Program-made: the position numbers and the translations under genes
In this document: positions 46,082 through 46,720 of the stretch, piece after piece
Layout of the letters: each line of letters opens with the position of its first letter
How positions within the stretch are numbered: position 1 is the stretch's first letter
NCBI RefSeq assembly: GCF_013122565.1
Contig: NZ_CP053258.1
Source of the DNA: Escherichia coli
Lineage (GTDB): Bacteria > Pseudomonadota > Gammaproteobacteria > Enterobacterales > Enterobacteriaceae
Reading direction: 5' to 3' (one strand)
DNA length: 64,000 nt
Notes under the pieces: model-generated
What the model was told of the DNA's origin: nothing
Databases searched by the model: none
The model's input: only the letters and a program-made list of their open reading frames with translations

Positions 46082-46498
46082 TCAAACCATCACCAGTGAT
46101 AACTCTTTGCCAAGCGCCTTAGCCGCGAGCTGGACGGCGTCGATTTTTGTCGCATGGTGCAAGTTAAATAAACGAGTAATTTCCTGTTTAGGTTTGCCAA
46201 TTCTCCTGGCTAACTCTTGCTGAGTGATTTCTGACTGTAAAAAAGCATTTAACAGCAATACCTTAGAGGCGACGCTCAAAGGTACTTCAATAAAATGATC
46301 GTGACTATTTAATGGCGAAGGTAACGGGATAAGCTCGTTATCTTCAAAATAAAAATCAAATGCGGTCAGTAAAGCATCTTTTGCCGCTTCCATCGCTTCA
46401 GCGACAGTTTCGCCCTGGGTCAACGCTTCAGGGATATCCACAAAAGAAACCATATAACCGCCTTCCGGCGCGGGTGTAAGAGTGACGGGATAACGCAT
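46082..46498 (-). CDS. hicB: HicB antitoxin (138 aa)
   Basis: Track ORF 46082..46519 (145 aa); start at MRYPVTLTPAPEGGYMVSF chosen by recalled length; C-terminal HTH. Alternative start 46519. Confidence 0.82.
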   Translation of the reverse strand: MRYPVTLTPAPEGGYMVSFVDIPEALTQGETVAEAMEAAKDALLTAFDFYFEDNELIPLPSPLNSHDHFIEVPLSVASKVLLLNAFLQSEITQQELARRIGKPKQEITRLFNLHHATKIDAVQLAAKALGKELSLVMV

Positions 46499-46543
46499 AA
46501 TTTCGACTGTCTCTCGCATGTCATTAACCTTTTTAATTGGCGA

Positions 46544-46720
46544 TTAACTCAAACCGAGTTGTTTCTGGATTGCTTTACGCAATGGTTCTTTAATCTCATC
46601 GCAGGGGTGACGCGGCATGACACTGCGCATCCCATGAAACCTGACTTTCAAATGGTTGCTGCCATTCGCTACATCGACGCCCTGAGATTCGAGCCAACGT
46701 CTGAACTCGCTTTGTTTCAC
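46544..46720 (-). CDS. hicA: HicA mRNA interferase toxin (58 aa, GTG start)
   Basis: Not in track. Hand translation from GTG: (M)KQSEFRRWLESQGVDVANGSNHLKVRFHGMRSVMPRHPCDEIKEPLRKAIQKQLGLS*; 24 nt upstream of hicB. Confidence 0.72.
   Translation of the reverse strand: MKQSEFRRWLESQGVDVANGSNHLKVRFHGMRSVMPRHPCDEIKEPLRKAIQKQLGLS

Follow-up and report, generated by a model that had tools for sequence, protein, structure and literature searches.

The chromosomal hicAB pair of Escherichia coli K-12 (hicA b4532 and hicB b1438; PDB 6HPB, 6HPC, and 6U0I) is the closest described counterpart of the locus treated here and has reportedly been studied by Jorgensen et al. 2009, Turnbull and Gerdes 2017, and Manav et al. 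2019. In the literature on the K-12 proteins, HicA is described as a ribosome-independent mRNA-cleaving toxin, and HicB as an antitoxin that also acts as a repressor via its C-terminal helix-turn-helix domain. His23 is the catalytic residue of E. coli HicA, and HicB covers this residue when it binds the toxin (PMC8138530). Two promoters are distinguished in accounts citing Turnbull and Gerdes 2017, as far as these accounts summarize that work (PMC11594946, PMC6957337, PMC8138530). According to them, the upstream promoter P1, which has a CRP-S site and requires CRP and Sxy, produces an mRNA from which both proteins are made, while P2 is repressed by HicB, de-repressed by excess HicA, and gives a transcript that yields HicB only. 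Here, we report on the corresponding locus in a stretch of 64,000 nucleotides of E. coli DNA (contig NZ_CP053258.1), referred to at its full length as the window. Positions 46082-46720 of the window, on the minus strand, are the chromosomal hicA-hicB type II toxin-antitoxin operon of E. coli, and our main subject is the start of its toxin gene, which an earlier note on this DNA had described as initiated at GTG.

The reading that explains the locus best, and to which we give a probability of about 0.9, is that of an E. coli chromosomal hicAB operon in which translation of hicA is started at GUG 46720, a weak start that would keep the toxin low. The following features are involved:

46544 to 46720, minus strand: hicA coding sequence, 58 codons plus stop, from GTG (46720-46718) to TAA (46546-46544); the RefSeq coordinates agree with this both for strain F9792 and for K-12.
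46725 to 46730, minus strand: Shine-Dalgarno sequence GGGAGG, separated by 4 nt from the GTG and by 2 nt from the ATG (DtoStart 12 and 10, respectively).
46717 to 46722, minus strand: ATGTGA, in which the ATG (46722-46720) overlaps the GTG (46720-46718) by one base and is directly followed by TGA (46719-46717).
46082 to 46498, minus strand: hicB coding sequence as curated (RefSeq, K-12), 138 aa beginning MRYPV, with ATG at 46498, 45 nt after the hicA stop.
46499 to 46519, minus strand: possible seven-codon extension of hicB (MRETVEI), beginning at an upstream in-frame ATG at 46519 (longest open reading frame, 145 codons).

The HicB protein of the window is 100% identical to PDB entries 6HPB_B (138 aa) and 6U0I (145 aa plus tag). 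HicA is identical at 55 of 58 residues, over its full length, to 6HPB_A, 'mRNA interferase toxin HicA' (E = 3.3e-34), the differences from K-12 being L26V, R31M, and L52Q. His23 is present (GSNHLK) and was invariant across an alignment of eight sequences; the product is a putative mRNA interferase. Pfam matches were obtained for both proteins, i.e. HicA_toxin (PF07927; E = 2.3e-5, 24.8 bits, residues 5-57 against profile positions 3-58) for HicA, as well as HicB_lk_antitox (PF15919; 32.8 bits, cut-off 27) and HTH_3 (31.4 bits, cut-off 23) for HicB. At the DNA level, a 1,051-bp query was compared with 5,426 complete E. coli genomes and matched annotated hicA/hicB in 5,416 of them, with identities of up to 99.9%; a 921-bp region was 99% identical to K-12. 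The gene order annotated by RefSeq in the best genome match (strain F9792) and in K-12 MG1655 is that of the window, and the K-12 locus has the same neighbors (rlhA, yncJ, hicA, hicB, and ydcR). The protein matches to 6HPB and 6U0I together with the DNA match to annotated hicA/hicB place the pair far beyond chance. Both genes are adjacent and co-oriented, with the toxin upstream and a spacer of 45 nt (or 24 nt, for the longer form of hicB), which is the toxin-first type II arrangement. The near-identity to the K-12 proteins, the RefSeq annotation, and the Pfam matches thus bear out the identification of a hicAB type II toxin-antitoxin pair in the earlier note, whose statements about the sequence all hold, although it left the minus strand unstated.

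The start of hicA at the GTG follows from the frame itself and from its homologues. Between the upstream in-frame stop (TGA, 46747-46745) and the GTG, the hicA frame reads GAT GGC GGA CAG CGG CAG ACT TAT, and no ATG, GTG, or TTG is found in this interval. The claim that no in-frame ATG is available to hicA is true at the N-terminus, but in-frame ATGs do occur at codons 31 and 35; starts at these codons would remove the catalytic His23. The strong Shine-Dalgarno sequence GGGAGG fits the GTG and has a predicted duplex energy of -11.1 kcal/mol with the anti-Shine-Dalgarno sequence at the 16S 3' end. Coverage by the HicA_toxin profile begins at residue 5, equivalent to profile position 3, which also fits a start at the GTG.

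Alignment with HicA homologues had been suggested in the earlier note as a check of the start, and all homologues examined share this first residue, encoded by ATG or GTG. A tblastn search, which is independent of the start codon, retrieved six plasmid-borne homologues, all annotated from the same first residue; four of them have GTG (Arsenophonus, Aeromonas, Citrobacter, and Klebsiella) and two have ATG (Fukatsuia and Pseudomonas). Among 78 usable loci of other species, the codon of residue 1 was ATG in 73 and GTG in five, a biased count, as the M that opens one of the two search patterns was back-translated as ATG; the start-independent subset comprises 18 ATG and five GTG. The closest orthologues (79-82% identity) are split at the same position, with GTG in L012 and L014 and ATG in L013 and L015. 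Further loci with ATG at residue 1 are L016, L017, and L019, and further loci with GTG are L018, L031, and L049. Of the computational evidence for the E. coli GTG as the true start, we regard the ATG found at the homologous position in near relatives as the strongest. In the closest (MKQSEF-like) clade, about 7 of 11 members have GTG by our own tally; as these members are not independent, we claim no enrichment of GTG for the family. Within the species, the Shine-Dalgarno sequence, ATGTGA, and the intergenic region are almost unchanged across eight divergent E. coli alleles. Compared with K-12, the promoter region, palindrome, Shine-Dalgarno sequence, ATGTGA, and intergenic spacer are identical except for a single base situated some 85 nt before the start. 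With a frame that offers no other start, a fitting Shine-Dalgarno sequence, and a first residue shared by the homologues, the 58-aa toxin initiated at GTG stands as described; this start is the standard K-12 annotation and already known.

The ATG directly followed by TGA in another register, also pointed out in the earlier note, can be read from the sequence at 46722-46717, and its context has been catalogued before. Kohl et al. 2022 (NAR; PMC9841429) list hicA in their Table 2 among 18 K-12 'atGTG' genes, i.e. genes with an annotated GTG inside ATGTG, with Shine-Dalgarno sequence GGAGG, a DtoStart of 12, ambiguity 'no', and a protein abundance of 0.021 ppm. Our own count of the spacing reproduces the value of 12 to the GUG and gives 10 to the AUG. 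In the reporters of that study, AUGUG with a spacer of 2-3 nt (DtoStart 10/12 and 11/13) showed activity from GUG only, and initiation at GUG was inefficient at short spacers (PMC9841429). The gene hicA was classed by prediction from these reporter-derived spacing rules (PMC9841429), and the exclusive use of its GUG is accordingly a prediction based on spacing. The 'AT' before the hicA GTG is specific to E. coli, the orthologues having GTGGTGA, GGGATGA, ATGGTGA, or GCGGTGA instead. The TGA after the ATG arises because the GTG is followed by the codon AAR for the conserved Lys-2, which is found in every homologue.

A second context of this kind lies in the neighborhood of hicA. The annotated GTG start of rlhA is also inside ATGTGA (49227-49222, minus strand), preceded by TAAG, and rlhA likewise appears in the 'atGTG' table (PMC9841429). 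Its annotated product has 653 aa, while the longest open reading frame, from GTG 49267, has 667 aa. That hicA and rlhA, two of the 18 K-12 'atGTG' genes, are located 2.5 kb apart is probably a coincidence.

For the synthesis of the toxin we propose the following course. Translation of hicA would start at GUG 46720, with GGGAGG 4 nt upstream. AUG 46722 would be left unused because the Shine-Dalgarno sequence is too close to it (spacing 10), and an occasional ribosome starting there would meet UGA at once. At its short spacing, the GUG would initiate poorly, such that toxin synthesis stays below antitoxin synthesis, which would matter since hicA precedes hicB in the operon. The weak GUG start may thereby add to the published scheme of promoters P1 and P2, and two elements upstream of hicA can be related to this scheme:

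46740 to 46748, minus strand: TGaTATACT, extended -10 and candidate for P2, ending 19 nt before the GTG.
46753 to 46770, minus strand: perfect palindrome GTAAACA-N4-TGTTTAC, putative HicB operator hicO, found by inverted-repeat search and aligning with the repeats of orthologues.

The palindrome is probably the HicB operator, and we infer from the sequence that P2 is placed at TGaTATACT. A P2 transcript would then begin about at the Shine-Dalgarno sequence and would for this reason yield HicB only. Likely, the weak GUG start serves to keep toxin output low. As to P1, a search for TGCGA-N6-TCGCA with at most three mismatches gave no more matches in the window than expected by chance, and none that was convincing upstream of hicA. 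The best CRP-like score of the yncJ-hicA intergenic region in a weighted scan was that of the near-palindrome TTTTGCAAATTAGCGCAAAG (46877-46856, minus strand), some 146 nt before the hicA GTG. It is a weak candidate for the CRP-S site of P1, with a half-site spacing that is wrong for a CRP or CRP-S site.

Several observations weigh against this reading or parts of it. The HicA_toxin score of 24.8 bits falls below the curated cut-off of 27, and no NCBIfam model matched HicA or HicB; the family membership of HicA, left borderline by the Pfam score, is resolved by its near-identity to the characterized HicA. A consensus promoter scan detected no -35/-10 pair at the putative P2, whose position, like that of the putative operator, was derived from the sequence. 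Two possible RNA structures around the start were rejected. A 7-nt inverted repeat (46747-46753 and 46710-46716) brackets the Shine-Dalgarno sequence and the GTG, but repeats of this kind occur at chance frequency, and it is absent from the minimum-energy fold. A local hairpin, in which part of the Shine-Dalgarno/start region is paired with codons 7-10, was not significant (z = -1.3 and -1.9), and structural control of the start is therefore not supported by folding. Our literature search for ribosome-profiling evidence on the hicA start returned only Kohl et al. 2022. Finally, against the proposed selection of the weak GUG for limitation of the toxin, GTG is used in only five of the 23 homologues of the unbiased subset, and closely related orthologues use an ATG start. 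The rough background of GTG starts is 10-15%, and 5/23 is not clearly above it.

The toxin gene is frequently inactivated within the species. Full-length hicA was found in 3,442 of the 5,426 complete genomes, whereas 811 carry a 22-bp deletion and 1,173 have no hicA, i.e. intact hicA is missing in 37% (example loci for its inactivation are L003, L004, and L005). The 22-bp deletion removes TGCGATGAGATTAAAGAACCAT between TGCG repeats (window positions 46602-46581); RefSeq annotates the result as a frameshifted pseudogene, and hicB is intact. Genomes without hicA mostly have a 445-bp deletion that extends from inside the palindrome (after 46766) into hicB, leaving the 3' part of hicB, and one example has IS91 elements at the locus. 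The hicA allele of the window is rare, with at least 99% identity in 11 of the genomes. In a plasmid collection, we also noted two records of 4.9 Mb labeled as E. coli plasmids (NZ_CP134663.1 and NZ_CP141089.1) that carry the chromosomal hicAB locus; these are evidently chromosomes filed as plasmids.

Given such losses in 811 (frameshift) and 1,173 (absence) genomes, the hicA of the window could itself be attenuated or on its way to a pseudogene, in which case its start codon would be of little biological consequence. All three differences of hicA from K-12 (L26V, R31M, and L52Q) are non-synonymous, whereas all nine in hicB are synonymous; residue 52, Q in the window, is L, I, or M in all other aligned sequences; and amino-acid-variable codons among the eight E. 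coli alleles number 10 of 58 in hicA as against 5 of 138 in hicB. Yet the open reading frame is intact, and His23, the Shine-Dalgarno sequence, and the start are all unchanged. V26 and M31 occur also in functional-looking homologues, and three substitutions are too few to demonstrate relaxed selection, so that we regard decay of this allele as unlikely. A further alternative concerns ATGTGA, which would be a functional control element rather than a by-product if ribosomes loaded at AUG 46722, terminated at the UGA via RF2, and re-initiated at the GUG, making HicA synthesis RF2-dependent. Termination-reinitiation of this type has been shown on AUGUGA and GUGUGA reporters and on native narQ (PMC9841429), and the exact ATGTGA is invariant in the eight divergent E. 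coli alleles. However, the effect was strong only where the spacing favors the 5' codon (14/16), only GUG was used at the 10/12 spacing of hicA, and hicA was scored as having no ambiguity (PMC9841429). Moreover, the 'AT' is confined to E. coli and the TGA is forced by the GTG and the Lys-2 codon. Re-initiation at hicA thus appears highly improbable, and direct initiation at GUG 46720 remains the preferred explanation.

The start of hicB bears on the spacing of the operon, since the earlier note had placed hicB 24 nt downstream of hicA. The gap to ATG 46519 is indeed 24 nt, but the curated start, which is supported by orthologues, is ATG 46498, and hicB most likely starts there, 45 nt after hicA. 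Initiation at ATG 46519, alone or beside the 138-aa form, would give a HicB of 145 aa that includes MRETVEI. This codon is the first ATG of the hicB open reading frame and is kept in all eight E. coli alleles. It is preceded by an A-rich stretch and by AAGG (-3.4 kcal/mol) at optimal spacing (DtoStart 13), the sole Shine-Dalgarno-like element in the spacer, whereas ATG 46498 has none; in addition, crystal structure 6U0I was built on the 145-aa form. On the other hand, ATG 46498 is the start given by RefSeq and in the current annotation of K-12, and the crystal structure of the complex with HicA (6HPB) contains the 138-aa protein. Counted on the long form, the Pfam domain sets in at residue 10, and one E. 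coli allele has a non-synonymous change (E3G) within the seven codons. A start codon is present at the homologous M(R/H/K/Q)YP in nine of ten close orthologues, and six are without an earlier in-frame start candidate; the N-termini of HicB orthologues read MRYPV, MHYPV, or MKYPV. Altogether, use of ATG 46519 is possible but doubtful.

Orthologous gammaproteobacterial hicAB cassettes (L013 of Entomohabitans, L012 of an Enterobacter metagenome-assembled genome, L014 of Photorhabdus, and plasmids of Arsenophonus and Aeromonas) encode HicA proteins of 65-82% identity with the same first residue, and HicB proteins starting at MRYPV or MHYPV. Like E. coli, they have the operator motif GTAAnCA-N4-TGnTTAC and a GGAGG Shine-Dalgarno sequence near the start, which is GTG in several of them. 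Their promoters are built differently. In L012-L015, a canonical promoter (TTGACA-17-TACTAT) ends 29 nt before the start codon and lies inside two GTAAnCA-N4-TGnTTAC repeats, i.e. the operator palindromes flank its -35 and -10 (positions 1100-1200 of these loci, compared with 46740-46830 of the window). E. coli has one palindrome only, which aligns with the second operator of the orthologues; at the ancestral -10 position, decay has left TACTTT, and the extended -10 is found only 19 nt before the start. This short distance from -10 to start fits the published HicB-only transcript of the HicB-repressed promoter.

The spacer between the two genes differs as well. Directly 3' of the hicA stop, orthologues carry a GC-rich hairpin (L012 1380-1401, L013 1379-1398, and also L014, L015, L006, L007, and L019), which is present in all close orthologues except L016-L018 and L020. 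Examples are CCAGCCC-TTCG-GGGCTGG, CCTGCC-TTACG-GGCAGG, and CGCCC-CAACA-GGGGCG, usually with (T)ACTCGC next to them. The stem stays paired through the base changes between species, and the hairpin is terminator-like only on the opposite strand. In the E. coli spacer (46499-46543), no terminator or hairpin was found, and E. coli differs from the orthologues also by the extra in-frame ATG before hicB. The hicAB system of IncI2 plasmids (Lin et al. 2025; PMC11878559) has the toxin-first order in common with E. coli, but its proteins show only about 20% identity to K-12 HicAB, and its HicB is of the ribbon-helix-helix type. Cis elements between the IncI2 genes set the toxin:antitoxin ratio, and a hairpin terminator before hicB raises toxin output (PMC11878559), whereas E. 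coli has no hairpin and its known controls lower the toxin.

Tentatively, and at somewhat less than even odds, E. coli hicAB may descend from a simpler mobile cassette by a re-wiring that damped the toxin. Moving the -10 by 10 nt toward the start would have left the autoregulated transcript no longer able to make toxin. Loss of one operator, the closer -10, loss of the hairpin, and the new ATG with its AAGG, together with the short-spaced GUG, would all lower the toxin:antitoxin ratio, and the loss of hicA in the population with hicB usually kept, whole or in part, would continue this trend.

The genes flanking the operon in the window are:

46003 to 44597: ydcR, downstream of hicB.
46942 to 47172: yncJ, upstream of hicA and divergent, with rlhA next.

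Since the regulation of the operon, the structures, and the activity have been published, the finding of the earlier note contains nothing new, and by itself it changes little, with the GTG start annotated and its ATGTG context catalogued. The locus may serve as a worked example of a toxin-first operon in which several weak-expression devices, i.e. initiation at a codon other than AUG, a Shine-Dalgarno sequence very close to this codon, and a promoter starting at the Shine-Dalgarno sequence, would jointly hold the toxin below the antitoxin. The remodeling of promoter and spacer and the repeated loss of hicA (from roughly one third of E. coli genomes), side results of modest scope that were drawn by inference from sequence comparison, could be of interest for work on the taming of chromosomal toxin-antitoxin modules.

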